Shown: one piece after another, positions 3,524 to 35,736 of the stretch
Numbering within the stretch: position 1 is the stretch's first letter
How the letters are laid out: each line of letters starts with the position of its first letter
Assembly (NCBI GenBank): GCA_030523205.1
Contig: JAUNJD010000002.1
Coordinates: 1 to 43,878 of the forward strand
Direction: 5' to 3'
Origin: Bacteroides sp.
GTDB lineage: Bacteria; Bacteroidota; Bacteroidia; Bacteroidales; Bacteroidaceae
DNA: 43,878 bases
Program-made: the position numbers and the translations under genes
Notes under the pieces: model-generated
What the model was told of the DNA's origin: nothing
The model's database searches: none
The model's input: only the letters and a program-made list of their open reading frames with translations

Positions 3524-3638
3524 TGAACGATTTCCAAACCTCAATGAATGATTCCTGAACCTAGGCTTATTTTGAACGATTAAGCGACTTGTATGAGTTA
3601 TTTCAGAACCTTTAACTTGGTATTTCCTTTCATCTTTG
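3524..3638 (+). promoter_or_regulatory. susC1 promoter: four TGAACGA-N7-ACCT-like boxes (two pairs at 21-bp period) and a Bacteroidetes -7 element; probable HTCS-binding sites
   Basis: Boxes at 3524 (TGAACGA tttccaa ACCT), 3545 (TGAATGA ttcctga ACCT), 3573 (TGAACGA ttaagcg ACTT) and 3594 (TGAGTTA tttcaga ACCT). CATCTTTG at 3631-3638 resembles TAnnTTTG. A ~21-bp direct-repeat period is typical of AraC-family sites. Confidence 0.7.
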
Positions 3639-3689: not shown

Positions 3690-6674
3690 ATGAAGAATAT
3701 GATCAATTTTCAAATCCTTTGTTTGGGTCTATCCACTACATCCGCTGCATGGAAGCTGCTTGCCTGCTGCTTCTTGTTGTTTTCTGTATCAGTAAAGGGG
3801 CAGACCAAGGAAAATGGCAGTCGGCCACGGCTGACCGACCAAGACATAATGATGCAGGAAATGAATCAAGATGGCGAACAACCCGACTTATTGAAGTGGA
3901 CTTTTCAGAACGAAGTGCGCCGCATTCATTTTCCTGTGCAGGTACTCGACACAATTGATGTGGACCAACTGAAAAAGACATCGTTCATCTCGTTGCAGCA
4001 ATGGCTCAAGGGACAGATGGCCGGTGTATATGTGCAGGAGCCGAATGGCGAACCCGGTTCGTTACAAAGTATGCTGATTAGGGGGACTTCGGTTCCCTTG
4101 TTCAGTAAGAACGATATCAATGGTGCACAGCCGGCCGTTTATATTAATGGTGTACCGGTGGCGCAAGACCGAAACTATTCGGCTGTTATCCAAAGCTCCG
4201 ACGTCAACCCATTAGGCACTGCAACCAATCTTTTTGCAGGTTTGCATCTCAACAACATTGTGAGCATGGAGGTTATCAAAGACCCCGTGAAGTTGGCTTT
4301 GCTGGGACCTACGGCTGCCAATGGAGCCATCTGGATTGTTACGAAAGAAGGCTTTTACGGAGGCAAACACGTGACATTGGATGCAGGTCTGTCGTTTGTA
4401 ACGCCTATGAATCGTGTAGATATGACCAATGCTGCCAGCGAACGTGCTTTCCGTGCCGACTTCTATCCTACGGTGAGTGCCGATGACCTTGACAATTACT
4501 TGCCTCAATGGTTGACAGACCGGAACGATGAGTATTTCTTTGGCCAGCCTACATGGGCCAACAACTATTATCAAAGTGCGGCTCAATACAACGTTAACCT
4601 TTCGATAGGTAGTGGTGGACGTACTGCTAACTATCTTTTCACAGTCGGAACCTCTACCAATGCGGGTGTGGCCGATGATACAGGTTACAATAAATACAAC
4701 TTGGGTTTCTACCTTAACTTGTTACCCTTCCGGGGAATGACAGTCAGCACCATGATTCAGGCTACTAAGGCAACGCGCAATCGTAATTCGAATATGCGCG
4801 ACCGTTATGCCGAGATAGCATACATGTCCGAACTCGTAACACCTATCGGCCCGACAGAAAAGGCTTATAGTAACTATCTGAAGTTGCTTGAGTCGGTTGA
4901 TGACGAAAATAATAATGCTGCCATTAACGGTGCTTTGCAGTTGGATTATGTATGGCATAATCTTAGGGCAAATGTAGGCGTGAAGTTTGATTATCAAACC
5001 AATGTTCGCCATGTGTTCTATCCTTCCACTCTCATGGAGTCGGTTAGTTATGCTTCCGACTATTCAGGCTACAACCGTCGTTTCATCGGTGAGGCCGGCT
5101 TAGGCTACGATTTCCAGTTGGGCTCACCTTATCACCGTTTGGCTGCCGATTGGCGTGGAACCATTCAGCAAGACCGTTATCACTATAACTATTCTCGCGG
5201 ATACGATGGAAGTGATGACAACAAGCCCACCACTAGCGGAGGCGATTATGAGATGTTGCGCTATCTTGACCAAGAGACCATACATCTGATGTCATCGGCC
5301 TTTTCACTCAATTACCAATATAAGAATCTGCTGAAGGCCAACGTCATTTTTCGTCAAGATGGCACATCGGCCGTGCAGAGCGACAGCCGATGGCTGCTGA
5401 CACCCGCAGTCGGCATAGAGCTCAATCTGAAATCCTTGTTGCTGAAAGATTCAAAACATCTGTCTGCGCTCAACCTTGCTTTGTCGTGGGCACGCATTGG
5501 CAGAGAGTTGGCTTCCGACCGCTATATGCAAGGTGCGCAATATACTACCGAGAATATAGGCTTCGGCTCTACTTCCCCTTTACTTTCCTCTTACAGCGGA
5601 TGGGCCACCCTTTCACGTCCTTATACCTACGGATGGATAGGTTATGGCATCGGTTGGCCTTATGCCGACAAGTTGGAGATGCGTTTGGACGGTGCTGCTT
5701 GGGGGGGACGTTTGGCATGGAATCTGGCTGCCTACATTAATACTGACAATGACTTGATGGTTCCTATGGCTATCATGCACGAAACTGGTTACGATTATCA
5801 ATGGTTGCAGGGCATGAAGATTGAAAACAGAGGTCTTGAACTGACATTGCAAGCCATGCCTGTTATGCAGAGTGCCGGATGGAAATGGAACATTGCCTTG
5901 AATTTGGCTTATAACCAAAACCGGTTGAAGGCTCTGCCCGGTGGAGCACAGGAAACCGAGATAGAAGGCAGATTGCTGAAGGTAGGTAAGTCGGTTGACC
6001 AGTTTTACGTACTGCTGAACAAAGGACGATATGAAACAGCCGATGAGATACCTGTTATTGATGGAAAACCGCTTAGTGTGAACGGAACGAGTTTGCAGGC
6101 CTTAGACCCCATTTGGGTAGATGCAGACGGTGACAACCGTATAACCGATGCCGATAAGGTGATGAAAGGAAATTCGCTTCCCCGTTGGACGGGTGGGTTT
6201 AGCACTACGTTGAGCTACAAACGCTGGGACCTTGCCTTACACTTGTTCTTTGCTTGGGGGCATGAAGCTATGAATCATCGGGCTTATCAGCGATACAACT
6301 TTGCTGTATTGGAAGGAACGGCTTCTCTTGATGCTGTTCACGAAATACATTTCTGGCAAAATGGCAATTTGCCTTTAGATTATCCGCGATACAACGTGTT
6401 GAGCGAGGTAAATCCCTATCGGGAAGACCAAGATTTATATATGGAAAGCTTGTCCTACGCCAAGTTGCGCACTGTAACCCTTGGCTACCGTATGCCCATA
6501 GGGAAGGGGAAAAAGCAAAAACAGCTGTACCTGTATCTGACGGGCAACAACCTGCTGACGATATCGGGCTTCAGTGGTGACGATCCCGAATTGGTGGATG
6601 TAGATGGTTACTATCGTGGATATGGGTTGAGAATGCCGTACTCTTTTACATTGGGTGCAAGATATAGCTTCTGA
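3690..6674 (+). CDS. susC: SusC/RagA-family TonB-dependent transporter 1 (atypical: no recognisable N-terminal extension or TonB box)
   Basis: Signal peptide; plug motifs LKGQMAGVYVQEPNGEPG, IRG and GPTAANGAIWIVTK; barrel motifs ENRGLEL, DADGDNRITDAD, GNSLPRWTGGF; C-terminal aromatic residue (RYSF); followed by susD. Confidence 0.93.
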   Translation: MKNMINFQILCLGLSTTSAAWKLLACCFLLFSVSVKGQTKENGSRPRLTDQDIMMQEMNQDGEQPDLLKWTFQNEVRRIHFPVQVLDTIDVDQLKKTSFISLQQWLKGQMAGVYVQEPNGEPGSLQSMLIRGTSVPLFSKNDINGAQPAVYINGVPVAQDRNYSAVIQSSDVNPLGTATNLFAGLHLNNIVSMEVIKDPVKLALLGPTAANGAIWIVTKEGFYGGKHVTLDAGLSFVTPMNRVDMTNAASERAFRADFYPTVSADDLDNYLPQWLTDRNDEYFFGQPTWANNYYQSAAQYNVNLSIGSGGRTANYLFTVGTSTNAGVADDTGYNKYNLGFYLNLLPFRGMTVSTMIQATKATRNRNSNMRDRYAEIAYMSELVTPIGPTEKAYSNYLKLLESVDDENNNAAINGALQLDYVWHNLRANVGVKFDYQTNVRHVFYPSTLMESVSYASDYSGYNRRFIGEAGLGYDFQLGSPYHRLAADWRGTIQQDRYHYNYSRGYDGSDDNKPTTSGGDYEMLRYLDQETIHLMSSAFSLNYQYKNLLKANVIFRQDGTSAVQSDSRWLLTPAVGIELNLKSLLLKDSKHLSALNLALSWARIGRELASDRYMQGAQYTTENIGFGSTSPLLSSYSGWATLSRPYTYGWIGYGIGWPYADKLEMRLDGAAWGGRLAWNLAAYINTDNDLMVPMAIMHETGYDYQWLQGMKIENRGLELTLQAMPVMQSAGWKWNIALNLAYNQNRLKALPGGAQETEIEGRLLKVGKSVDQFYVLLNKGRYETADEIPVIDGKPLSVNGTSLQALDPIWVDADGDNRITDADKVMKGNSLPRWTGGFSTTLSYKRWDLALHLFFAWGHEAMNHRAYQRYNFAVLEGTASLDAVHEIHFWQNGNLPLDYPRYNVLSEVNPYREDQDLYMESLSYAKLRTVTLGYRMPIGKGKKQKQLYLYLTGNNLLTISGFSGDDPELVDVDGYYRGYGLRMPYSFTLGARYSF

Positions 6675-23553: not shown

Positions 23554-24570
23554 ATGATGCGATTTTTATTTATATGCCATTGTTTGTTTTCATGGCTGTT
23601 TATAGTGGGATGTGGCTCTTCATCGGACACTTATCCTTCTACAGAGGAGGAGATACTTGCGAGCATTGCTCGAGTTAACGACAAATGGCAGCAACAAGAT
23701 CCATCCTCGCTTTGTGTGGATTCTGCTGTTTACCACATAGGTAATATGGCAGCTTATCGGACTACGGGGAATGTCAACTACCTGCGCTACTCGCAAGTGT
23801 GGGCCGAACGCAATGCGTGGAAAGGTTGTCAATATGCCTATATCGACCTCTACAAGGCCTATCCGGAAGAACACAAGATAAGTGATTTATGTCGTTTGAT
23901 GGCTATGGAGCCTTCTGTATCCAAGGCGACTGACGAACGTCGGTTCTCTCAAGACGTTTCGATGTGGATGCCTGTATTGGTCGAGCTTTATGGAGTTACA
24001 GGCAATATTGCTTGCCTTGATCGTCTGCACAAGATGTTCGATGCCGCTTTGATTTCCCTTTACGATGTAGATACCTCGCTCTTTGTATGCAATAATAGTC
24101 GTATTCTGGCTTCAATGGCACTCGTGATTGAGCGATTGCCGTTGCGCGACGCATACAGAGAACGCTATCTACGGATATATTCATCTGTGGCTCGTGCGCT
24201 CTTTTCGCTACAACAGTCTGATGGACATTGGAATGCAAACATCAGTGAATCCGATTCTTTTTCTGTCACGGCCTTGATTGCTTTCAGCTATCTTTGGGGC
24301 ATTCGTCATGACCTTCTACCCGGTTCCGATTACACTGTTTCGGTTGCTCGTGCTTGGGCTTATCTCTCAGCATCGATGGATGCCATTGTACCCTTGCAGG
24401 CCGGAGATGCCGTTGTCCCATCTGAAGGTGTTGCGCCATTGTTTACCGACTTGACAGTAGGGTCTTACCTTTGGGTTGCTACCGAAATGCTGGAAACTTT
24501 GCGTACAAGCAATCGTTCGTCTGCTTTGTTAGCTTCTACTTTGCATCAAAAGTCGACTTCTTTGCAATAA
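23554..24570 (+). CDS. Degenerate GH105-like lipoprotein (probably inactive)
   Basis: Lipobox IVG-C. N-terminus aligns with the GH105 at 27488 (RVNDKWQ/RVNDYWQ, YHIGNMAAYRTTGN/YHTGNMEAYRLTGN, WAERNAWKG/WAEYNEWKG), but active-site segments are deleted or changed. Confidence 0.7.
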   Translation: MMRFLFICHCLFSWLFIVGCGSSSDTYPSTEEEILASIARVNDKWQQQDPSSLCVDSAVYHIGNMAAYRTTGNVNYLRYSQVWAERNAWKGCQYAYIDLYKAYPEEHKISDLCRLMAMEPSVSKATDERRFSQDVSMWMPVLVELYGVTGNIACLDRLHKMFDAALISLYDVDTSLFVCNNSRILASMALVIERLPLRDAYRERYLRIYSSVARALFSLQQSDGHWNANISESDSFSVTALIAFSYLWGIRHDLLPGSDYTVSVARAWAYLSASMDAIVPLQAGDAVVPSEGVAPLFTDLTVGSYLWVATEMLETLRTSNRSSALLASTLHQKSTSLQ

Positions 24571-24628
24571 TCGCAGACCCTTTTGACGGAATAATGGATT
24601 CTTTTCCGCTAAAAAGTACGGACTTTTG
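24555..24628 (+). promoter_or_regulatory. Candidate internal promoter for the hydrolase genes: three GAyyyTTT boxes at 21-bp period and a -7-like GACTTTTG
   Basis: GACTTCTTTG (24555), GACCCTTTTG (24576), GATTCTTTTC (24597); GACTTTTG at 24621-24628. Confidence 0.35.
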
Positions 24629-24678
24629 CGGCATCCTAGTGTGGGAGAATTAGTATAATCCATAATCTCAAAAAAACA

Positions 24679-27426
24679 ATGAATACCGTAATGAACATTA
24701 TTCGAAAAGCCTCTCTATGCGCGGCTCTGTTGTTTTCGCTCAGTATGCAGGCATCTGAACGAACATTAATTGCTGATGCGGGCATCAAAGATTCTACTGC
24801 CCAAACGACTTGCGTCGTAGGTACTACTCTTAACACTGCTCCTACGTTGCCTGCTACTGTCAATTGGGACGGCAAAGAAGTCCCCGTCAGTTGGCAGAAA
24901 GTCGATTCTTCAACTTTCAATACTCTCTATGCTAATACCGTAGTGAAGGGTACCGTGGTTATTGAAGGGAAGTCCACTGAGGTAGAAGCCTCTGTATGGA
25001 CTTTGCCCGAGAATCTGGTTTACTTGATAGATGCCGGTACTCTCTCCTCGGATCATTCCCCCATTTACCAGGCTGCACGTTCGCTTTGCGGTGATGCCCT
25101 GCTCAATGATGTTCCCGACCAAGTTTCCACTTCCACCACTTCTGGATGGGGCCACGAGCAGACAACTGTAGGCGATGGTAAACGTGTACATATTGACCAA
25201 GGCGACTCAAAGGACTGGGCTACCTCTTTCCTCAGCAAGACGCGCAACACACATCAGCCCTTAGCCTATCGCTTTACCTTGCCGGCAGGTACTTATCGCA
25301 TCACTGCGGCTTATGTACCCTGTCTCACTCTGACGTACAACAGTTGGTTGCGTGTAGATAATGCCCGCAAGTCATCGAAATCCGTGAAGACTGTTGCCAC
25401 GGACGACAAACGGCATCCCGCAGTATTCTCTACTTACAATTTGTCTTTGCGCAACTCCACTACTTTCACCTTCGAGACCGATAAGCTGACTGGTGAGGAG
25501 TGGGAGAATGTAAGCATCAGTCTTATCGCTGTCGAACGCATTGGTTCTAACCTCCCCATACCGCAGTTTTCAAGCACGAGCGGCGATTATTGGGACGGTC
25601 TGCAACTTAGCCTTACTCATAAAGACGCTTCGGCAACCATCCGTTATACAACCGATGGTAGTCGTCCCACAATCAATAGCCCGATTTACACTTCACCCCT
25701 GAACATCAATCATACTTGTCGGGTTAACGCAGTGGCTTGTTTGAATGGAGACATTAGTCCTGTGGCTACTTCCGATTACGTTCTTACCACTTGGGCGGTT
25801 GCCGCCACGCCATTCAAACTGCAAGGACAGACTTCTGTGAGCAATGTCAAACTCAATTGGGCCATTCGCACCAATGCCGCAAGCTATCGTATTTATCGTA
25901 ATCAGAAGCTCATTGGCACCACTATCGGTGACACTTTCGATGATTATGACCTTGTCACTCCGGCTACCTATACCTATCATGTGGAGGCACTCGATGCCCA
26001 AGGTAAAGTATTCAGTACCTCTGTGTCTCACGAGGTTCGCACTTTTAAGCCTACGGGCATACCTGCCGTTTACGATAACCTCATTGGTCAATACGTAGAT
26101 TCCAACCGTGTGTATACTCCTACGCCTATGAAGATAAAAGGTCGTTACTACACGTACCGCATCAGTCAGATAGAAAAAGACGTTGATGGGCAAATCCAAA
26201 AAGGGTGGCAAGTGACCGAAAGCCAATCGGCCACCGGTGCATCCGGCAGTTGGAGTACGCCCCGTGAGCTGGCTTTCTATCCCGGTGTGAAATTCGAAGG
26301 CAATGCCTTCCGCTATAACCCCTTGACAGGTAAGGTGGTGCTTTCTTCTCACTACGAAGACCAAAAAGGTTACACGGCTGCAAAAATCTATTTGGCGCAG
26401 ATTACTCCCGGAGGCGATATTGAAGTAGGCACCATGGCCCGTCCTTTAGGACACGATTCCCGCGACCAGTCTGTCTTTGTCGATGATGACAACACCGCTT
26501 ATCTGCTATCGGCTACCCGCACTAACAACGATATTAACATCTATCGTCTCGATTCCACTTGGACACGGCCTGTGGCATTGGTCAATACAGTCTTTATCGG
26601 CTGCCACCGCGAGACACCTACCATCGTTCGCCATCAGGACACCTACTACTTTTTCAGTTCGAAAGCTTCTGGTTGGTATCCCAGCCAGGCGATGTATGCT
26701 TCCGCCACTCGCCTCGATGGGGTATGGTCTTCGCTTCGCGAAATAGGGAACAGCTCAACTTTTGATGCACAAGTGAACAATGTACAACGTCGTGGTCTGG
26801 TGGACAAACCCACCTTTGGCTTATGGAGTTATCATTGGGGGGCACAACGTAAGTATAAGACTGTTGCCGGTAATTTCCCTCGCATCTCCATCATTTCCTT
26901 CAATGCAGGCTTTGCTTCGGCCGATTATTATCGCTACATTGAGTTCTATGATGACCTTGGCATGGTGCCCGTTCAGGCTGGTCGCAATCTCAGTTTGCTC
27001 GCATCGGTTACCGAGTCGGTAGGTAATGCCAGTGGAGTATCTCCGCTCTGCATCACGGATGGTGCCGATATGGCTTCATCTCCTTATTTCCAAGGAAGTA
27101 GTTATCCTTATTCGCTCACAGTTGACCTTAACAAACCATGTCAGCTTAGTGAAGTATGCCTGTCTACACGTTTAGTAAACGGTTCGGAGGCAGCTTATAA
27201 GTTCACTCTCGAAGGTAGTATAGATGGCATCAGTTATCAGACGATTTACGACGGGAGCGACAATTGGGCCGTAGGCTTTCTCATCCTGCCTTTGGAACAA
27301 ATGCAAGTTTTCCGCTACCTGCGCGTCAATGTACAGCGAGTGGTAAATGTGCATAGCGGAAGTGCTGCCAATTGGGCCGAAGGCCTTTATGAAATAGCTG
27401 TTTATGGAATGCCTGTCGATAAGTAG
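24679..27426 (+). CDS. Multidomain glycoside hydrolase: Ig-like (Big_4), beta-sandwich, chitobiase-C/Fn3-associated, Fn3, GH43_24-like catalytic domain, F5/8 (CBM32-like)
   Basis: SPI signal; LPATVNW..VPVSW; ATIRYTTDGSRPTINSPIY; YRIYRN..YTYHVEALD; GH43 motifs SRDQSVFVDDDNTAYLL, RETPTIV, SGWYPSQ, FDAQ; LTVDL...FRYLRVNV. Confidence 0.8.
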   Translation: MNTVMNIIRKASLCAALLFSLSMQASERTLIADAGIKDSTAQTTCVVGTTLNTAPTLPATVNWDGKEVPVSWQKVDSSTFNTLYANTVVKGTVVIEGKSTEVEASVWTLPENLVYLIDAGTLSSDHSPIYQAARSLCGDALLNDVPDQVSTSTTSGWGHEQTTVGDGKRVHIDQGDSKDWATSFLSKTRNTHQPLAYRFTLPAGTYRITAAYVPCLTLTYNSWLRVDNARKSSKSVKTVATDDKRHPAVFSTYNLSLRNSTTFTFETDKLTGEEWENVSISLIAVERIGSNLPIPQFSSTSGDYWDGLQLSLTHKDASATIRYTTDGSRPTINSPIYTSPLNINHTCRVNAVACLNGDISPVATSDYVLTTWAVAATPFKLQGQTSVSNVKLNWAIRTNAASYRIYRNQKLIGTTIGDTFDDYDLVTPATYTYHVEALDAQGKVFSTSVSHEVRTFKPTGIPAVYDNLIGQYVDSNRVYTPTPMKIKGRYYTYRISQIEKDVDGQIQKGWQVTESQSATGASGSWSTPRELAFYPGVKFEGNAFRYNPLTGKVVLSSHYEDQKGYTAAKIYLAQITPGGDIEVGTMARPLGHDSRDQSVFVDDDNTAYLLSATRTNNDINIYRLDSTWTRPVALVNTVFIGCHRETPTIVRHQDTYYFFSSKASGWYPSQAMYASATRLDGVWSSLREIGNSSTFDAQVNNVQRRGLVDKPTFGLWSYHWGAQRKYKTVAGNFPRISIISFNAGFASADYYRYIEFYDDLGMVPVQAGRNLSLLASVTESVGNASGVSPLCITDGADMASSPYFQGSSYPYSLTVDLNKPCQLSEVCLSTRLVNGSEAAYKFTLEGSIDGISYQTIYDGSDNWAVGFLILPLEQMQVFRYLRVNVQRVVNVHSGSAANWAEGLYEIAVYGMPVDK

Positions 27427-27487
27427 TATGATGCAGACTCAAAGCACATAATTCAGAGACTATTATTTGAAATATTTATTTATCCTT

Positions 27488-29815
27488 ATGAACAACAGAC
27501 GAATTATAACCTTGCAGATGCTTTGTTTCCTTATGGTTTCATGCATTACGCTTCCAGTATCGGCTGCCAAACGGAGCAATGAAGCCTCCGAAGTGCGAAC
27601 TATCATTCAGCGTGTCAACGACTATTGGCAAAGCCATCATTCGGCGAAAGCCTCGGCTTTTTGGGATAATGCCGCATACCACACTGGTAATATGGAGGCT
27701 TATCGTCTCACAGGCAATGATGCTTACCGAACTTACTCTGAAGATTGGGCTGAATATAACGAATGGAAAGGTGCTAAGAGTAACAACACTTCCTGCTGGA
27801 AACACACCTATGGTGAGACCGACGATTACGTGCTCTTTGGTGATTGGCAAATCTGTTTTCAGACCTACGTGGATCTTTACAACATCTTACCGGAGAATCG
27901 CAAAATATCTCGTGCGCGTAAAGTGATGGAGTACGAAATGGGTACTTCGCGCAACGACTATTGGTGGTGGGCCGATGGATTGTATATGGTGATGCCTGTC
28001 ATGACCAAACTTTATAAAGTGACTCAAAATTCACTCTATCTTGATAAGTTATATAAATATTTGCGCGTGGCGGATAGTCTGATGTATGATGTTGATGAAG
28101 GGCTTTATTTTCGCGATGCCAAGTATGTCTATCCCAAGCATTGTACGGTTAATGGAAAGAAAGACTTTTGGGCTCGTGGTGATGGATGGGTGTTGGCGGG
28201 TCTGGCCAAGGTGATAGCTGATCTTCCGATTGACTATCGCCATCGTTCCTTCTTCATTCAGAAGTTTCAGCACATGGCTCAAGCTGTGGCTGTCCTTCAG
28301 CGGCCGGAGGGTTATTGGACTCGTAGTCTGATGGATGCCGATCATGCGCCCGGTCCCGAGACCAGTGGTACGGCCTTCTTTATGTACGGTCTGATGTGGG
28401 GTGTCAATTACGGATTGCTTGCCGAGGCCGATTATATGCCCGTCATCAATCGGGCTTGGAACTACCTGAAGAATACAGCCTTGCAGAAAGACGGACGCAT
28501 CGGCTACGTGCAACCCATTGGCGAGAAAGCCATTCCGGGACAGATGATTGATGAGAAATCTACGGCCAACTTTGGTGTAGGTGCTTTCCTTTTGGCTGCT
28601 TGTGAGTATGTGCGCTATCTTGAAGCACCAGTCAATGCCGACCGTGCTTACTGGTGTCAGTTGCTCTACAATATGGCCAAACCTGTGCTTAGCCTTATGG
28701 CAGAAGGCCGGTTACAGCAAGAGATGGAAGTTGAGGTCAGTCCTTCGTGGGATGGCCGCGACAAGCGCGTCACCTATATGGAGACTTTCGGTCGCCTCAT
28801 GGCAGGTCTTGCTCCTTGGCTTTCGTTGCCCGACGATGATACGACTGAAGGCCGACAGCGTCTTGAACTACGCACTTGGGCTTTGAGTAGCTATGCCAAT
28901 GCTGTCAATCCTTCCAGTCCCGACTATTTGCTGTGGCGTGGTCACGGACAAGCTTTGGTTGATGCTGCCTACATAGCCGAGAGCTTTCTGCGTGGATTCG
29001 ATAGCTTGTGGATGCCGCTCGACTCGCTCACTAAGCAACGCTACATAGCCGAGTTCACCCAATTGCGTCGGGTCGATCCTCCTTACACCAATTGGTTGTT
29101 GTTCTCCTCCATTATCGAGAGCTTTTTGGCTAAATGTGGTCAGCCTCACGATGAGTTCCGCATCAATACGGCTATCCGCAAAACCGAAGAGTGGTATACA
29201 GGCGACGGTTGGTATGCCGATGGTCCGGAATTCAGTTTTGATTATTATAGTAGTTACGTTTTCCACCCCATGTATCTGGAAACGCTTCATGCCATGATGG
29301 ATGCCGGTTCTCGTACACGCATTGCTTATGCTGCTTATTATAGCCGTGCATTGCGCCGTACACAGAAGTACAGCCTTGTGTTGGAGCGGTTGATATCGCC
29401 TGAGGGCACTTTCCCCGTGTTTGGTCGTTCCATTCCTTATCGCTTGGCTACGATGCAGCCTTTGGCGTTGATGGCTTTGCAGGGTACGTTGCCTGCCGGT
29501 GTCGGTAATGGGCAGGTGCGTGCGGCGCTTACCTCGGTGATGCACCGTATGTTCGATGGCGTGGAGAATTTTAATTCAGGAGGCTTTCTTACTATTGGGT
29601 TTGTGGGGCGTCAGCCTAATGTGTCCGATTGGTATACAAACAATGGTAGCCTTTATATGACTTCTTTGGGTTTCTTGCCTTTAGGCTTGCCGGCTACTCA
29701 TCCTTTTTGGACCGATGCGGCTCAGCCTTGCACCAATGCAAAGGCCTGGGGGGCTCAGCCTTTCCCAAAGGATCATCATTGGGAAAATGGTACTAAATTG
29801 AAGGACTTATTTTAA
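27488..29815 (+). CDS. GH105 unsaturated glucuronyl hydrolase fused to DUF2264/GH154 beta-glucuronidase-like domain
   Basis: Start reassigned from TTG 27467 to ATG 27488. GH105 motifs WWWADGLYM, FWARGDGW, ETSGTAFF, FGVGAFLLAA; after ~nt 28620, DUF2264 motifs ETFGRLMAGLAPWL, QALVDAAY, NWLLF, YTGDGWYADG, DYYSSYVFHP, GRSIPYR, YTNNGSLY. Confidence 0.9.
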   Translation: MNNRRIITLQMLCFLMVSCITLPVSAAKRSNEASEVRTIIQRVNDYWQSHHSAKASAFWDNAAYHTGNMEAYRLTGNDAYRTYSEDWAEYNEWKGAKSNNTSCWKHTYGETDDYVLFGDWQICFQTYVDLYNILPENRKISRARKVMEYEMGTSRNDYWWWADGLYMVMPVMTKLYKVTQNSLYLDKLYKYLRVADSLMYDVDEGLYFRDAKYVYPKHCTVNGKKDFWARGDGWVLAGLAKVIADLPIDYRHRSFFIQKFQHMAQAVAVLQRPEGYWTRSLMDADHAPGPETSGTAFFMYGLMWGVNYGLLAEADYMPVINRAWNYLKNTALQKDGRIGYVQPIGEKAIPGQMIDEKSTANFGVGAFLLAACEYVRYLEAPVNADRAYWCQLLYNMAKPVLSLMAEGRLQQEMEVEVSPSWDGRDKRVTYMETFGRLMAGLAPWLSLPDDDTTEGRQRLELRTWALSSYANAVNPSSPDYLLWRGHGQALVDAAYIAESFLRGFDSLWMPLDSLTKQRYIAEFTQLRRVDPPYTNWLLFSSIIESFLAKCGQPHDEFRINTAIRKTEEWYTGDGWYADGPEFSFDYYSSYVFHPMYLETLHAMMDAGSRTRIAYAAYYSRALRRTQKYSLVLERLISPEGTFPVFGRSIPYRLATMQPLALMALQGTLPAGVGNGQVRAALTSVMHRMFDGVENFNSGGFLTIGFVGRQPNVSDWYTNNGSLYMTSLGFLPLGLPATHPFWTDAAQPCTNAKAWGAQPFPKDHHWENGTKLKDLF

Positions 29816-30372: not shown

Positions 30373-30438
30373 CAAAAGTAATGTTTAATGTACAGAATGA
30401 GGTACATACATCGTTCAATGAGGTCTGTTATTCGGTCA
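30373..30438 (-). promoter_or_regulatory. Minus-strand promoter with two TGAACGA-N7-ACCT boxes and a TAnnTTTG -7 element
   Basis: TGACCGA ataacag ACCT (30438-30421) and TGAACGA tgtatgt ACCT (30417-30400), 21-bp period. TACTTTTG (30380-30373) starts 37 bp after the start of the proximal box, the same spacing as at susC1. Confidence 0.7.
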
Positions 30439-30476
30439 TTGTAGGCATACATTGTGAACGAATGATTATTTCTGCC

Positions 30477-32054
30477 TTATCCTTCTTGTGGGATAATAAG
30501 GAAACTGAAACCAGCAGGGCCACCGCCACCGTTTTCCAATCGTACCAAGATGCGGTTCCATCCTTGGTCGAAGTGGAAAGGTTCGATGTGTTCATCTATG
30601 TTATACCAGCTTGTACCGGTGTCCTGCCATACGTCTTTTCCGTTAATCCATACCCGACCGCTATCATCAGTGCCGATAGCCACAAGCATGGTGGTCGCTT
30701 CGTCGAAGTATAGTTCGGTGTAAGCATAATAGGTTGAGTGTCCGGAGGTGACAGGTACCGTGTTGTGCATAGACTCACTTTGCATAAACTTCCAGCGTAA
30801 GGTTCCGTCCAGTTGCACCTCTTCGCCAATCATGTGGATAGGGTGCGAATCGGTTTCTTCCTTACCTACGCCTATCTGCCCGTCAGTATAGACTGCATCA
30901 AAGTCTATGGCAATTTCGGGTGGATGTACAATTGCGAAATCGTCGCGACCATAGTTCTCCCATGGTCCTATCATGTACCAAGTGTTGATATACAGCCATC
31001 CCTTTCGTTGGGCATTTTTGGCGAATCGTCTGCCCGGTAAGGCTTGCGCCTGTACCATTTCCTTGTCGAGCTGTGCACCGGCATAGACTGCATATGGTGT
31101 CTTCGGTACGTCGATGGGGATACCTTCGGTTCCACCTTCTCCCGCTGCCTCACCGGAACCATAGCCTACACCACTTCCTCCTCCAGCAGAGCCGCTATTG
31201 CCGCTGTTGCCGCTTCCGGCCGTACCGCCTCGACCAATCTGTCGTGGTTTCCCGAATAGGTTCTCCAGTCGGGTGGCTGCTAATCCGGCTTGTCGCATGG
31301 TTTGCCCCAGCAGATTGCGGTAGCGGTTCAAGTCGGCTGTACTCTTTACGCTTAATCCATTGCTGGCATTGCTTTGCGCCGTGCATTCCCATTCATTGCC
31401 TCTGCTTTGCATATTTATCAACTCGTCGAAGGTGGGCATACGTGTGGAACCTTGCTTCAAGGCATTGTACACTTCGGGAAAGGAAAGTCCCTTGGTGAGA
31501 ACCTGTTTGGCTGCGCTTACCGCTAAATGATTCTGCAATATCTCAGTTTCGTATGCGCGTAATTGTTCGTATATATCTTTTATCGGTGAGGCGTCAGTCA
31601 CCGTATGTCTTACTTGGGCTATAGCTCTTGCCTGTGACGTGTCATTGGCATCGCTGGGTGCTGAAGCGGGTAACTTCCGTCCTTCAACTTTTGTGAGCAG
31701 ATGATTTTTCCGGCTACGCATCTTTACGGCCATCTCGCGAAACCTATTTAACTCTTTGTTGAGGTTGCGGCGTACCAGTATTTCCGATTGTTTTACCAGC
31801 TGATCGGCATAGTTGGCAGGCAGTGCACGCCGAGCCTGCTCTTGTTTCAAACGTTCAGCGGCATTGCGCGTGATGGCTTGCCGAGGTTGCTGTTGTTGCT
31901 TGACGTTGGCGTCGGCTTTGGTTAGATTGATGCCCTCGTTGTTGGGTGTAGGCAGGCTGTTTAGGAAATAGGCTCCTGTGGCAAAGATTAGCAGCACTAC
32001 AGCCCAGGCGGCTACCGATACCCACCTATTGGGTTCTGTTGTAGTTTTCATCAT
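30477..32054 (-). CDS. Membrane-anchored protein with helical stalk, Gly/Ser linker and C-terminal PA14-like beta-sandwich; occupies the TonB position of the exbBD operon
   Basis: N-terminal TM WVSVAAWAVVLLIFATGAYFL; Q/R/K-rich helical region; linker GRGGTAGSGNSGNSGSAGGGSG; WYMIGPW...YAYTELY...IGTDDSGRVWING...GWNRILVRLEN. Overlaps exbD by 29 nt. Confidence 0.8.
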   Translation of the reverse strand: MMKTTTEPNRWVSVAAWAVVLLIFATGAYFLNSLPTPNNEGINLTKADANVKQQQQPRQAITRNAAERLKQEQARRALPANYADQLVKQSEILVRRNLNKELNRFREMAVKMRSRKNHLLTKVEGRKLPASAPSDANDTSQARAIAQVRHTVTDASPIKDIYEQLRAYETEILQNHLAVSAAKQVLTKGLSFPEVYNALKQGSTRMPTFDELINMQSRGNEWECTAQSNASNGLSVKSTADLNRYRNLLGQTMRQAGLAATRLENLFGKPRQIGRGGTAGSGNSGNSGSAGGGSGVGYGSGEAAGEGGTEGIPIDVPKTPYAVYAGAQLDKEMVQAQALPGRRFAKNAQRKGWLYINTWYMIGPWENYGRDDFAIVHPPEIAIDFDAVYTDGQIGVGKEETDSHPIHMIGEEVQLDGTLRWKFMQSESMHNTVPVTSGHSTYYAYTELYFDEATTMLVAIGTDDSGRVWINGKDVWQDTGTSWYNIDEHIEPFHFDQGWNRILVRLENGGGGPAGFSFLIIPQEG

Positions 32055-32454
32055 ACGTACGTATTCCTATATTGCTAAGGTTATAAAATTGACAAGCATC
32101 CATCACCTGTACCAATCGGCCGAAGGGTGTATCCTTGTCCATGTCGATGCGGATGCGCCGTTCAGGTTGGGTGATGCAGACGGTGCGCAGCTGTTCCATA
32201 AGAAAATTGGTGGTGCATGGCTGTCCGTCCCAGTAGAAGTTTCCTTCTGTGTCCAGTCCTACGATGGCCTGTTTGTCATCGGGCTTTAGTTTGGTGGCTG
32301 CTTCCGATGTGGGCAGGTTTACGTTGATATCGCGATTTTTCACTTTGGTCATGGTCGATACCAAGAAGAAAATCAGCAATAGGAACACGCAGTCTATCAG
32401 TGGAGACATCGAAATCTCCGGATCTTCGTCGTTATTGAATAAAGGCAGATTCAT
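32026..32454 (-). CDS. exbD: ExbD/TolR-family protein 2
   Basis: Start reassigned to ATG 32454 (MNLPLF). MSPLIDCVFLLLIFFLVST includes the essential TM Asp; NVNLPTS; IRIDMDKDTPFGRLVQVMD. Confidence 0.93.
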   Translation of the reverse strand: MNLPLFNNDEDPEISMSPLIDCVFLLLIFFLVSTMTKVKNRDINVNLPTSEAATKLKPDDKQAIVGLDTEGNFYWDGQPCTTNFLMEQLRTVCITQPERRIRIDMDKDTPFGRLVQVMDACQFYNLSNIGIRTYDENYNRTQ

Positions 32455-32896
32455 AAGGCTTACTTCCCATTCGGACCCGCGTGCGAGCGAATCCTTGTAT
32501 TTGACATCTATCAAAAATCTCGATTACTGTATTTACAGGAACCGTGCGATGAGCCGTCACGTCAATGGCCGTCTCTATTCCCCGGCTATTGCGGAGGTCG
32601 GCCAGAAAGCCGTTCAGGTCGGCGATGGGGCGATAAGTGCACTCACCACTGTAAGCATCGTGGCCTATCACCTCATACACATTCTTCTCCTCATCAACTG
32701 CTATGATTACAGCCTCTTCGCCCTGCTTGGTGGTGGAAAGGCTGCTGGTCATCGAAGGCAGCGTTAGTGGGATCTGCATCTCCCACTTTTTCATCATGGT
32801 GGTCACTAGAAAGAAGATGAGCAGCAGAAATACGCAATCAATCAGCGGAGACATCTGTATGTCCACTTTATCTTCATCGTCATATTTCAGTCTCAT
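32432..32896 (-). CDS. exbD: ExbD/TolR-family protein 1
   Basis: MSPLIDCVFLLLIFFLVTT includes the essential Asp; PLTLPS; ATGA overlap with the exbB stop. Confidence 0.93.
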   Translation of the reverse strand: MRLKYDDEDKVDIQMSPLIDCVFLLLIFFLVTTMMKKWEMQIPLTLPSMTSSLSTTKQGEEAVIIAVDEEKNVYEVIGHDAYSGECTYRPIADLNGFLADLRNSRGIETAIDVTAHRTVPVNTVIEIFDRCQIQGFARTRVRMGSKPYESAFIQ

Positions 32897-34386
32897 AGAT
32901 TATCCTCCTTTATTTCGGTGCGTTCGGCATCCTTGCCCTCATTCAATGGGCTGTTCTTTTCGAGATAGATTTGGGTGATTACTTTTTCTATCTCGACCTC
33001 TATCGTTGAGGCTAGCCGCTGAATGCGGTTCTTGATGAGGAAATAGAGTGCGATGGCGGGTACGGCTATAATCAAACCCGCTGCTGTGGTGATGAGTGCT
33101 TTCGAGATGGAGTCGGAGAGAATAGAAGGACCTCCTTCATCTCCATAGAGTGCTACCAGACCGAAGGCCTCGATCATACCTACCACGGTACCCAGCAGAC
33201 CAATGAGTGGCGAGAGCGATGAGATGACAGAAATGGGATAGATACGTGACAGATGGGTACGGATGTCACGTGCAGCAATGTCGCCGGCTGTCTGGCTTAC
33301 CGCTTCTCGCCCTGCATTGATATGCTCCAGAATGTAGGATAAGGCCGATGCCAAGGTTGATGGGTATTTGTGACAAGCATCAATTGCTCCTTGCAAGTCT
33401 TTTTGTGAGATGCAATTGTCTATGGCTTTGCATAGGGGCTTTGGTGCCAGTCGGGCAGCGCGTGAGGTGAAGATTCTCTGCAAGGCTATCACGAAGGCTA
33501 TGATTCCAAGGGCATATAGTGGATACATCATCAGACCACCTGCTTTTATCTGTGCTGCCCAGTCTATCTGTACTCCTTGAGGTTGTTCTTCGGTTTCGTC
33601 TTCTTCGTTTAGGTCGTCCAAGGTCATCTCGTTGCCTTCATCGTCAAGGGGGAGGGGAGTGGCAATCTCGCTTGGCGATACTTTGGGGGCATTGGCCAAA
33701 TCGTCCTGACTGCGTGCTAGAAATATTTCATCGAATCCGGCATCTCGACGTTGCGGGCATAGAAAGTCAATGCCTGTCAGTGTGAAGTCGCCAAAGTCTT
33801 TCCACAAGTCGCGCGTCACCACCATCCAGCCGCTGGGTGCTTCGGTGTCAATGCTCAATCCTTTGGTGATGAGCTGTTCGGAAGTGTCGTTCTTCTTCTT
33901 GCTGGCATTGGCTTTTTGCTCGTTTTTTGGTTTTCCGTCGCCTGCAATGTAGGTGAAGTCATACTTCTCTCCTTTGCTATTGCCTGCTTGAGGAGTGGCT
34001 TGTAGATGGATGCCTACTTGATTTCCACCCCATTTGACAAAGGCGAAACTTATGTATCGGTATTCCCCTGCTTTGGGATTTTCGCGGATGGGTATAGAGA
34101 GGCCGTTCATCTGTGCCGGACTCTTTGAGGCACTTACATAAATATAGTTGGGCGTATTCTTTGAATAACCGCCACTACGGACATATTTCCCTTCTTGTCC
34201 CCATGTAGTACCTTCGGGCATCTCTGTACTGAAGATTTCGAACAGTCCCTTGCTACTTTTTTTCACCGTTTGCACAGTGCTTTGAGCCGAAACTTGCGGA
34301 GCCATTAGCATGGTTGCCATGCATATTGCTGCCCATTTGTTTGCCATCTTTTTGGCGAAGCCAATTTTAGTCAGATTTCCATTCAT
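32893..34386 (-). CDS. exbB: ExbB/MotA/TolQ proton-channel protein with signal peptide and extra N-terminal periplasmic domain (start 34386 or 34347)
   Basis: GGLMMYPLYALGIIAFVIALQR; SPLIGLLGTVVGMIEAF; ISKALITTAAGLIIAVPA. Preceded by an SPI signal (QVSA-Q), a ~200-aa globular domain and an acidic linker. Confidence 0.92.
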   Translation of the reverse strand: MNGNLTKIGFAKKMANKWAAICMATMLMAPQVSAQSTVQTVKKSSKGLFEIFSTEMPEGTTWGQEGKYVRSGGYSKNTPNYIYVSASKSPAQMNGLSIPIRENPKAGEYRYISFAFVKWGGNQVGIHLQATPQAGNSKGEKYDFTYIAGDGKPKNEQKANASKKKNDTSEQLITKGLSIDTEAPSGWMVVTRDLWKDFGDFTLTGIDFLCPQRRDAGFDEIFLARSQDDLANAPKVSPSEIATPLPLDDEGNEMTLDDLNEEDETEEQPQGVQIDWAAQIKAGGLMMYPLYALGIIAFVIALQRIFTSRAARLAPKPLCKAIDNCISQKDLQGAIDACHKYPSTLASALSYILEHINAGREAVSQTAGDIAARDIRTHLSRIYPISVISSLSPLIGLLGTVVGMIEAFGLVALYGDEGGPSILSDSISKALITTAAGLIIAVPAIALYFLIKNRIQRLASTIEVEIEKVITQIYLEKNSPLNEGKDAERTEIKEDNL

Positions 34387-34522
34387 ATTAGAAACTTTTT
34401 TAATGATTATAAGTTTATAGATTATCAATTATTTATCTGCAACAAAATTCGTTTTTCTATTCGAAATTGAGTTACAGAATTCTGCTAATTGCGTTCAATT
34501 ATCGGCCTACTTGTGCTGACTG

Positions 34523-34560
34523 AGGTTCAAAAATCGTTCAGAAGGTATAGTATTCGTTCG
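34523..34560 (-). promoter_or_regulatory. Two TGAACGA-N7-ACCT boxes upstream of exbB
   Basis: CGAACGA atactat ACCT (34560-34543) and TGAACGA tttttga ACCT (34540-34523). The second matches the 3545 box at 15/18 positions. Confidence 0.65.
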
Positions 34561-34707: not shown

Positions 34708-35736
34708 ATGAAGAAAAAAAATTTGATTGGATTCATGTTGGCTGCTCTCTTGGGCGTCGTGTTTGGTGTCGAGTCATGTGAACAGAAGGCTGAAAAGACG
34801 ATTGTGCCCGGTGCCGTATGGAACGATACGGATGGCAATCCCATTAATGCGCATGGTGGCGGTTTGCTCTATCACGAGGGTGTCTATTATTGGTACGGAG
34901 AGTATAAGCAAGGCGAGACGGTGCTGCCTTCCTGGGCCACATGGGAATGCTACCGCACGGATGTGACTGGCGTCAGTTGCTATTCCTCTACCGATTTAGT
35001 GAACTGGACCTTCCGTGGCATTGTGCTCCCGGCTGTTAAGGATGATCCTGACCACGACCTTCACCCAAGCAAAGTGTTGGAGCGTCCCAAGGTGATTTAC
35101 AACAAGCATACCGGTAAATTTGTGATGTGGGCTCACGTAGAGAGTGCCGATTATAGCAAGGCTTGTGCAGGCGTGGCAGTAAGCGATTCGCCTACCGGCA
35201 TATTCTCCTATCTGGGCAGCTTCCGTCCCAACGATGCCATGAGCCGCGACCAGACACTTTTCGTGGATGATGACGGCCTGGCTTATCATTTTTATTCATC
35301 GGAAAACAATGAAACATTGTATATCAGTCAGCTTACCGACGACTATCTGCGCCCTAGCGGTCACTATACCCGCAACTTTATTAAGGAGAGTCGCGAAGCT
35401 CCGGCTGTGTTCAAGCATGAGGGCAAATACTATCTTCTGACTTCCGGATGTACCGGATGGGACCCCAATCAGGCCGAATTGGCGGTGGCCGATTCCATCA
35501 TGGGGCCGTGGACCACAATTGGCAATCCTTGTACGGGCGATGATGCATCAAATACGTTCCACGCACAAAGCACCTATGTGCAACCCGTGGTCGGAAAACC
35601 GAATTGCTACATCGCCATGTTCGACCGTTGGAACAAGACCGACTTGGCCGACTCTCGTTACGTATGGCTTCCTATGTCCTTCGTGGATGGGAAGATTACG
35701 ATTCCTTGGCAAGCAGAATGGAGCCTTCCGAAATAA
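34708..35736 (+). CDS. GH43 subfamily 24-like exo-beta-1,3-galactanase, predicted lipoprotein
   Basis: Lipobox-like VES-C; INAHGGG, YYWYGE, LERPKV, SRDQTLFVDDDG, REAPAVF, SGCTGWDPN, HAQST, DRW...RYVWLP. Confidence 0.9.
   Translation: MKKKNLIGFMLAALLGVVFGVESCEQKAEKTIVPGAVWNDTDGNPINAHGGGLLYHEGVYYWYGEYKQGETVLPSWATWECYRTDVTGVSCYSSTDLVNWTFRGIVLPAVKDDPDHDLHPSKVLERPKVIYNKHTGKFVMWAHVESADYSKACAGVAVSDSPTGIFSYLGSFRPNDAMSRDQTLFVDDDGLAYHFYSSENNETLYISQLTDDYLRPSGHYTRNFIKESREAPAVFKHEGKYYLLTSGCTGWDPNQAELAVADSIMGPWTTIGNPCTGDDASNTFHAQSTYVQPVVGKPNCYIAMFDRWNKTDLADSRYVWLPMSFVDGKITIPWQAEWSLPK

Follow-up and report, generated by a model that had tools for sequence, protein, structure and literature searches.

In the Ton system an ExbB channel and an ExbD with a transmembrane (TM) aspartate act with TonB, a TM-anchored partner that spans the periplasm and has a role in glycan import, and the import by polysaccharide utilisation loci (PULs) is assumed to depend on a TonB-ExbBD set that is shared and unlinked. 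According to the available part of Pollet et al. (bioRxiv 10.1101/2023.07.07.548152), the tonB genes of Bacteroides thetaiotaomicron are dispersed, and the roles of its five ExbB and eight ExbD homologues are called open. A further described type is the vWA-tipped cassette of Bacteroidetes and the Planctomycetes-Verrucomicrobia-Chlamydiae (PVC) group, in which a TPR and a tolQ-like gene together with two tolR-like genes accompany a vWA arm; the available part of Williams-Jones et al. 2025 (PMC12204202) gives its function as unknown and states the job of non-TonB arms as open. Here we describe a four-gene operon, exbB-exbD1-exbD2-X, on the minus strand at positions 30477-34386 of a 43,878-nucleotide stretch of Bacteroides sp. 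DNA (assembly GCA_030523205.1, contig JAUNJD010000002.1), hereafter the window, which is the whole contig of its genome. The initial annotation had proposed a PUL-dedicated energiser with a PA14-like arm, a proposal now well supported by the fold of the head, co-occurrence, a predicted regulator box, published induction data and a fitness defect of BT0288, the B. thetaiotaomicron counterpart of X by gene order, and we consider it very probable that the operon serves arabinogalactan use.

The operon shares with the Ton system the ExbB channel, the ExbD aspartate, the periplasm-spanning partner and the link to glycan import, but it lacks the TonB C-terminal domain (TonB_C) and instead combines a jelly-roll head, a helical stalk and an ExbB fused to a carbohydrate-binding module (CBM); unlike the dispersed tonB genes of B. 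thetaiotaomicron, it sits in, and is co-regulated with, one PUL. With the vWA cassette, as far as the available part of its description goes, it has in common an exbB, two heterologous exbD genes and a non-TonB arm of three parts, but its head is all-beta, the SHLS histidine and the TPR gene are absent, its ExbB is CBM-fused, and it has a known substrate and phenotype via the match to BT0288. Its setting resembles the PUL BT0262-90 (PUL5; PMC3243724, PMC8121099), with the same order from the gene of a hybrid two-component system (HTCS) to BT0278 and with BT0285-88 matching the operon, but in the window the operon has the inverse orientation with respect to the PUL, with other galactan enzymes on its flanks. 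In these two sources BT0285-88 appear as table rows only, labelled 'putative tolQ-type' and 'hypothetical'. The head of X has the fold of PA14 (6xac, 6m8m) and GH2 domains, but is 14-16% identical to them, falls below the Pfam cut-off and is borne on an inner-membrane motor arm. FusB of Pectobacterium is reportedly a TonB homologue acting as an energiser that contacts its imported protein substrate directly; X differs in being devoid of TonB_C, and its substrate would be a glycan.

The operon is a head-swapped variant of the ExbBD force-transducer cassettes and not a new motor class; new here are the CBM-fused ExbB, a named substrate and a knockout phenotype for such a motor. Through this locus an extra motor is linked to a single named dietary fibre, and this in a gut commensal that is amenable to genetics and for which an overlooked knockout phenotype exists, so that the function of a large unnamed family of arms becomes testable. 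It may also account for the small number of Bacteroides that grow on arabinogalactan, for the working of a SusC devoid of a TonB box, and for polysaccharide uptake by PVC bacteria in which TonB receptors are few or absent.

The motor genes

The four open reading frames (ORFs) of the window overlap successively, exbB and exbD1 by an ATGA, exbD1 and exbD2 by 23 nt, and exbD2 and X by 29 nt, just as initially annotated. The exbB/tolQ-like gene (32893-34386; 497 aa from the ATG at 34386, with a second possible start at 34347) matches PF01618 (E 6e-21) and is the counterpart of BT0285 by gene order. The genes exbD1 (32432-32896; 154 aa, TM Asp20) and exbD2 (32026-32454; 142 aa, TM Asp21) both match PF02472 and correspond to BT0286 and BT0287, respectively. 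Across the operon Pfam recovers MotA_ExbB once and ExbD twice, and NCBIfam returns TolQ/ExbB and TolR/ExbD matches below cut-off. ExbB has three TM helices (residues 284-302, 387-405 and 431-449) and contains both channel motifs, GLLGTV and ALITTAAGL; its channel Thr and kink Pro are invariant across 95 relatives, and the TM Asp is invariant in 22/22 rows of ExbD1 and again in 22/22 rows of ExbD2, which agrees with the view that the proton motor is intact. The roles of the channel Thr pair and the kink Pro are known from E. coli ExbB, as given in the available part of PMC12215075.

The two ExbD proteins are 30% identical to each other, and ExbD2 retains 61-86% identity across three phyla. A near-identical TM segment (MSPLIDCVFLLLIFFLV) and conserved cysteines are common to both (window 32026-32896). 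These subunits would be expected to assemble as a 5:2 motor with an ExbD1/ExbD2 heterodimer. Elsewhere in the genome, all on other contigs, there are three further exbB/exbD loci and four matches to TonB_C (PF03544), so the operon constitutes an extra motor. A scan of the 24 window proteins and of 60 neighbour proteins found no tolB or pal family of the Tol-Pal system, and in the 24 window proteins no TPR gene either. No sequencing runs are listed for the operon.

X, a membrane-anchored arm with a jelly-roll head

X (30477-32054; 525 aa) takes the place of TonB. An AlphaFold model built from 67 relatives (mean pLDDT 76) displays a helical stalk (residues 46-266; 31257-31919) after the single TM anchor (residues 12-30; 31965-32021), then a Gly/Ser-rich flexible linker (residues about 270-341; 31035-31247) with pLDDT below 50 and 42% Gly over residues 270-312, and finally an all-beta head (30480-31034), all encoded on the minus strand. 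The TonB-like topology proposed earlier is thereby reproduced, as is the lack of a Pro-rich region (Pro 4.5% over residues 33-340), a trait that the available part of bioRxiv 10.1101/2023.07.07.548152 also reports for Bacteroides TonBs. The lack of a TonB C-terminal domain holds likewise, with no Pfam match to PF03544 in X and a modelled head that is an all-beta sandwich.

The head is the most conserved part of the protein, with a mean identity to the query of 80% as against 56% for the stalk (over 70-268) and 24% for the TM helix. Structurally it is a jelly roll of the PA14/GH2 type, matching the GH2 N-terminal sugar-binding domain (VIA; Z 10.6, root mean square deviation (rmsd) 2.8, 123 aligned), the PA14 lectin 6m8m (VIA; Z 8.7, rmsd 3.2, 128 aligned) and MpPA14 6xac (Foldseek E 2.4e-5). 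No TonB_C, vWA or OmpH structure is among the listed fold matches, which alone does not exclude them. The GTDD motif singled out in the initial annotation (residues 461-464; nt 30663-30674) does lie in this sandwich and is kept in 67/67 close relatives, and at greater distance the DD pattern recurs in 118 of 149 representatives, fragments making up many of the misses. In two relatives the Asp-Asp pair sits in a stretch weakly matching PA14 profile positions 63-89. The Asp-cis-Asp of PA14 lectins is a calcium site that binds sugar.

X matches no Pfam family at E 0.01 and no NCBIfam family. Its public database label, 'OmpH family', can be corrected: OmpH/Skp is a small soluble chaperone, and X is a 525-aa protein with a TM anchor and with neither a Pfam nor an NCBIfam match; NCBIfam likewise returned no match for P0011, P0012 or P0055. 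A sequence search of X against solved structures yielded spurious beta-propeller and coiled-coil matches only, and the helical-bundle matches to the stalk (Z 7.7-8.0) were weak and were disregarded.

The TM anchor of the family is marked by a motif S16-W17-x-x-A20, with Ser in 58/67 and Trp in 64/67 relatives and Ala16 in the window copy. The 'SVAAW' of the initial annotation was thus off register, although its observation that SxxxH is absent stood. A weak G-x-hydrophobic-x-L trace follows the TM helix at the place of the D-box, the pattern for which was taken from the available part of PMC10907165. The TM His is also missing in two of the three housekeeping TonB (motor-linked or TonB_C) proteins inspected in this genome, so its loss from X does not exclude coupling to the motor.

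An ExbB with an N-terminal CBM-like domain

The initial annotation was right about the ExbB channel motifs but passed over the N-terminal extension, which makes this ExbB about 270 residues longer than usual and comprises a signal-peptide-like start (judged by eye from the sequence), then a CBM-like domain and, leading up to TM1, an acidic linker. The domain is a jelly roll of about 195 residues (roughly 42-235; 33682-34263, minus strand) resembling CBM8, CBM29 and CBM16, with invariant Trp and Tyr residues and a model pLDDT of 86.7. Its fold matches include CBM8 7t7z (VIA; Z 11.6, rmsd 3.0, 139 aligned; Foldseek E 1.3e-4), CBM29 (Z 10.2), CBM16, CBM30 and CBM11, as well as a glucuronyl C5-epimerase domain (Z 10.3), and the ESM Atlas also indicates CBM30-like clusters. 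Judged from the model, it is assigned to the CBM-type jelly-roll fold with conserved aromatics, and glycan binding is predicted. The domain was found in 26/26 loci with a whole exbB. In TM1 of ExbB a conserved Y-P-L-Y-x-x-G/A stands where the E. coli protein has the Ser34/Trp38 pair that docks TonB (PMC12215075, available part). Given that the X TM helix and ExbB TM1 each depart from the TonB-ExbB pattern, both docking faces have apparently changed together.

Induction and fitness of the B. thetaiotaomicron counterparts

In two Bacteroides loci (L002 and G197) an LRR-protein gene precedes exbB, exbD, exbD and X, after which come an outer-membrane gene on the opposite strand and a GH35 gene matching PDB 6eon. 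This order parallels the listing in Table S1 of PMC3243724, namely BT0284, BT0285 ('tolQ-type'), BT0286, BT0287 ('biopolymer transmembrane'), BT0288 and BT0290 (GH35), and on gene order X would therefore be BT0288. The same table gives fold inductions of 17.0 for BT0284, 17.2 for BT0285, 16.5 for BT0286, 21.4 for BT0287, 22.4 for BT0288 and 93.7 for BT0290; these genes are induced in a single condition, in the column common to BT0263-79, which was identified as arabinogalactan from the layout of the PDF, and the main text of PMC3243724 assigns BT0262-90 to arabinogalactan.

The fitness data come from the available part of PMC8121099, where Table S2 requires |t| above 5. BT0288 mutants on arabinogalactan score -3.03/-2.59 (t -5.4/-5.3), the lowest of the 27 arabinogalactan rows and the only two rows for BT0288 in that table; the SusC genes BT0268 and BT0272 score -1.9/-2.0 and -2.1/-2.2, and the HTCS gene BT0267 scores -1.1. 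Polarity is an unlikely cause of the BT0288 defect, because the gene is the last of its operon and the next gene lies on the opposite strand. As whole words the locus tags BT0285, BT0286, BT0287 and BT0288 occur in no main text of the literature searched, and the motor system is undescribed there, a scope that takes in neither subscription journals nor bioRxiv supplements nor the full fitness matrix; the available parts of PMC11036162, PMC6851124, PMC13543919, PMC12596196, PMC8406133 and bioRxiv 573055 do not mention the operon.

Association with the arabinogalactan PUL

The PUL core of the window (152-23538, plus strand) has the same order as BT0267-BT0278: HTCS, SusC1, SusD1, fasciclin, DUF5007 and SusC2, followed by SusD2, fasciclin, DUF5008, LamG, M60-like and phosphodiesterase/LamG-like genes. 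Downstream lie the PUL enzymes (23554-29815, plus strand), a GH105-like protein, a GH43 galactanase-like protein and a GH105-DUF2264 fusion. The flanking enzymes resemble beta-1,3-galactanases and related structures, the glycoside hydrolase (GH) family names being those we take to belong to their PDB matches. Among them is a GH43 beta-1,3-galactanase-like gene (34708-35736, plus strand), which is divergent from exbB with a common upstream region and matches 6eug (E 1.7e-98) and the galactan 1,3-beta-galactosidase 7bys (E 3e-56). By gene content and order the plus-strand locus is assigned to the arabinogalactan PULs of the BT0262-90 type. The GH105 and DUF2264 modules form one fused ORF (27467-29815), whereas they are two genes downstream of X in Bacteroides loci such as L001 and L005, and the GH105/GH88-like lipoprotein at 23554-24570 has a partial domain match and looks degenerate.

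The check on co-occurrence came out in favour of linkage within the genus, full-length X and DUF5007 being found in the same 7 of 170 genomes, in five of them on one contig, though these kin are not independent; three head-only matches of 71 residues were dropped from the count of X. PUL core or enzyme genes are present in the fetched DNA of 16/20 Bacteroidota loci, the other four being contigs of 3-11 kb, and DUF5007 is present in four of five further Bacteroidota carriers, one of which also belongs to the genus set; the carrier without it is a 1.6-Mb bin. Among 400 genomes drawn at random from the phylum and 380 from the order there was no full-length X, so these draws add only joint absence and three PULs devoid of the motor. 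DUF5007 was found in 0/5 PVC carriers of the operon. The link between operon and PUL is not obligate, as these motor-less PULs and DUF5007-less carriers demonstrate. In the loci L002 (2737-7530) and G197, HU-like, VapE-like and LRR genes lie between PUL core and operon, with an insertion sequence (IS) in addition in G197.

A Plug domain went unmatched in three PVC carriers with an intact operon (G604, G605 and G608, two Lentisphaeria bins and one Phycisphaerales bin, which may be incomplete). At the Phycisphaerales locus the operon has GH51, GH35 and GH43 galactanase-like genes on one side and a sugar ABC transporter on the other. What is constant across hosts is thus galactan-type metabolism and not SusC, with the reservation that the surroundings in rumen Lentisphaeria are mixed and that 2/5 PVC carriers gave no galactanase match. 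On this comparative genomic evidence the ligand of the operon seems to travel with the glycan rather than with SusC. The Phycisphaerales loci L029 (3-14621) and L054 also encode a LacI protein, a giant PATR-dockerin protein and a prepilin-type gene, with no SusC; a giant PATR-repeat protein is likewise found upstream of exbB in the Akkermansiaceae bin locus L026 (1408-5979).

The two SusC proteins of the window differ. Neither an N-terminal extension nor a TonB box occurs in SusC1 (3690-6674), and this holds for 9/9 inspected homologues, with or without the motor; a comparison of SusC1 N-termini made to test a partnership with X did not discriminate. Both are present in SusC2, whose TonB box is canonical, and SusC2 should therefore be opened by housekeeping TonB.

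A predicted regulator box upstream of exbB

A site for the regulator HTCS_Aga-1, with the core TGAAYGATT, has been predicted upstream of BT0268 in the available part of PMC3878776, whose supplement files, so far as available, do not contain BT0285 or BT0288. We predict three copies of this type of box upstream of susC1 (3524-3581, plus strand) and one upstream of exbB (34519-34550, minus strand), with the core TGAACGATT at 34540-34532. With a matrix built from eight susC1-upstream sites only, the exbB-upstream box scores 26.0, above all 831 AT-rich control upstream regions of the genome, and a box above the 99th percentile is present in 9/15 Bacteroidota exbB upstream regions. In the window the box could also serve the divergent GH43 gene, but its strand is that of exbB, and relatives without the GH43 gene retain it. 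Promoter scans, one of them with a Bacteroides promoter pattern, remained at chance level.

Two further box-like occurrences were seen. Just 3' of the X stop (window 30390-30440) are a box-like TGAACGATG and a repeat with a 21-bp period, which face no gene and are possibly a relic of rearrangement. Elsewhere in the genome (G000:C13:16700-16880) three copies of a regulator-type box lie between a secreted-protein gene and an HTCS-like gene, pointing to a possible second regulon member or a related regulator.

Phyletic distribution and the wider arm family

A survey recovered 33 genome loci, 27 of which have all four genes in order, including one with a cut exbB (L022) and one with a frameshifted X (L028). 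In two of the other six the contig breaks off within exbD1, two more stop just upstream, one is a rearranged bin and one is from Roseateles, with the order exbB-exbD-X-like. The hosts belong to Bacteroidota, Lentisphaeria, Verrucomicrobia and Planctomycetota, and include B. thetaiotaomicron, B. faecis, B. finegoldii, Paraprevotella, Sunxiuqinia, Salegentibacter, Sphingobacterium, rumen Lentisphaeria, Haloferula and Phycisphaerales; the X head is still 69% identical in a Planctomycetota bin. Some copies are anomalous. In L030 (2587-4366) the N-terminal half of ExbB is joined directly to the X head in another frame, a deletion or a misassembly; in L028 (10001-11531), a B. finegoldii record, X is split into three frames by sequencing error or as a pseudogene; and L022 is a 3.5-kb contig labelled Clostridium, probably through a binning error.

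Phylogenetic trees group the Bacteroidota and rumen Lentisphaeria copies (99/99; 100/100 in a second tree), with Verrucomicrobia and Planctomycetota outside; L028, for its frameshift, was left out of the X and concatenated trees, and L022, L030, L032 and L033 were left out of the 100/100 tree and of that used for the approximately unbiased (AU) test. At least one cross-phylum transfer of the operon is likely on these topologies, and an origin in the PVC group is no more than suggested, since PVC monophyly is not rejected (AU p 0.056).

At E 1e-10 the wider X family comprises 550 clusters, the long representatives of which have an N-terminal TM helix in 103/112 cases. S-x3-H is kept in 41 of these 103, with a T-x-M-x-F-D strand next in the consensus. 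Among 79 metagenome loci of such distant relatives, exbB and exbD lie directly upstream of the arm in 52 of the 58 with room for them, which makes X a member of a motor-linked arm family; together with the retained S-x3-H and T-x-M-x-F-D, this adjacency indicates descent from TonB-type arms. The CBM-like domain of ExbB was found in 0/79 of these loci, and in sequence terms X represents a subfamily marked by loss of the His and by the CBM fusion of ExbB.

A proposed mechanism and alternative explanations

In the mechanism that we favour, the ExbB-ExbD-ExbD proton motor belongs with an arabinogalactan utilisation locus, and X would dock on ExbB via a co-diverged TM helix, with S-W in place of S-x3-H. 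The stalk and linker would reach the outer-membrane face, where the head may bind a galactan chain on the periplasmic side, with calcium-dependent sugar binding via Asp463-Asp464. Proton flow through ExbB-ExbD1/D2 would retract X and so pull the glycan into the periplasm, the predicted CBM domains on ExbB could hold the chain, and SusC2 would still be opened by housekeeping TonB. Direct action on the glycan is favoured because two carbohydrate-type folds occur in one motor, and we rate such direct pulling as falling a little short of an even chance. A broader formulation is offered more tentatively still and may well prove wrong: that Bacteroidota and PVC bacteria possess a second energising route for glycan import, likely PVC-derived and wired into the arabinogalactan regulon of gut Bacteroides, in which a substrate-specific motor bypassing the TonB box uses a lectin arm to ratchet branched beta-1,3-galactan across the outer-membrane complex and onto a ring of five CBM-bearing ExbB subunits.

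A number of observations weigh against this picture. The PA14 assignment is one of fold, with a Z of 8.7 that is lower than the 10.6 for GH2; PF07691 (PA14) has no match in X, and 2/61 relatives give weak scores of 16-17 bits, short of the cut-off of 24. Jelly rolls can serve in protein contacts as well, and that of the X head could do so. The X TM helix lacks SHLS (S-x3-H), the +4 position being Ala, Pro, Thr or Val in 66/67, the full 7-residue D-box follows it in 0/67 relatives (shuffled mean 0.5), and ExbB TM1 is devoid of the Ser34/Trp38 pair. In 3 of the 400 phylum genomes there is a DUF5007 PUL with no full-length X or ExbB-domain match, 2/5 PVC carriers have no galactanase match, rumen Lentisphaeria copies of the operon lie mostly among unrelated genes, and the box is missing from 6/15 Bacteroidota and 6/6 PVC exbB upstream regions. 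BT0285-87 are in none of the nine PMC8121099 supplements searched; since a strain without the motor should behave like one without X, this counts against a simple motor requirement, and the omission may stem from the threshold, from missing data or from cross-talk with other motors.

The most serious competitor, which we nevertheless hold to be unlikely, is that X is a non-TonB energiser gripping a protein, its head taking hold of the box-less SusC1 on the periplasmic face, or of a PUL lipoprotein, and opening it. It would account for the need for BT0268 on arabinogalactan although SusC1 has neither extension nor TonB box, and it fits the exact co-occurrence of X with the tandem-SusC PUL in the genus, the position of the operon directly before susC1 in L015 and L023, and the high conservation of the head, which also suits a protein interface. 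The same box-less SusC1, however, is found in the three PULs without a motor, and the operon is intact in G604, G605 and G608, where no Plug was matched in these incomplete bins, so that the earlier suggestion of an engagement with the atypical SusC1 is weakened; the absence of DUF5007 from all five PVC carriers and the unexplained CBM domain of ExbB likewise speak against a protein partner. Rather less probable is an inner-membrane complex that traps or senses periplasmic glycan or scaffolds enzymes, proton flow tuning it with no movement of substrate at the outer membrane. Five ExbB CBM domains and the X head would indeed concentrate oligosaccharides near the HTCS or inner-membrane carriers, an ABC transporter directly follows X in L029, X is without classical docking motifs, and BT0285-87 are not in the phenotype table; but such a device would hardly call for strict conservation of the proton-path residues across three phyla or for a periplasm-spanning stalk and linker, and the defect is larger for BT0288 (-3.0) than for the HTCS gene BT0267 itself (-1.1).

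The motor might also power export or assembly of the PUL surface complex (fasciclin, DUF5007/5008 and M60-like lipoproteins) or of giant PVC surface proteins, in keeping with the defects of similar size in BT0275, BT0276 and BT0278 and with the giant PATR-repeat proteins just upstream of exbB in L026 and L029. We think this improbable, given that three motor-less genomes have the same lipoprotein set (fasciclin, DUF5007, DUF5008, LamG) and that the carbohydrate-type folds would go unexplained. That the operon is a functionless or unrelated passenger cassette co-transferred with the PUL is very improbable: its patchy distribution, the signs of cross-phylum transfer, the IS, HU and VapE genes flanking it in Bacteroides and the frameshifted X of L028 could all be read in that way, but the specific knockout phenotype, the induction, the regulator box and the strong conservation point to an operon with a role in the locus.

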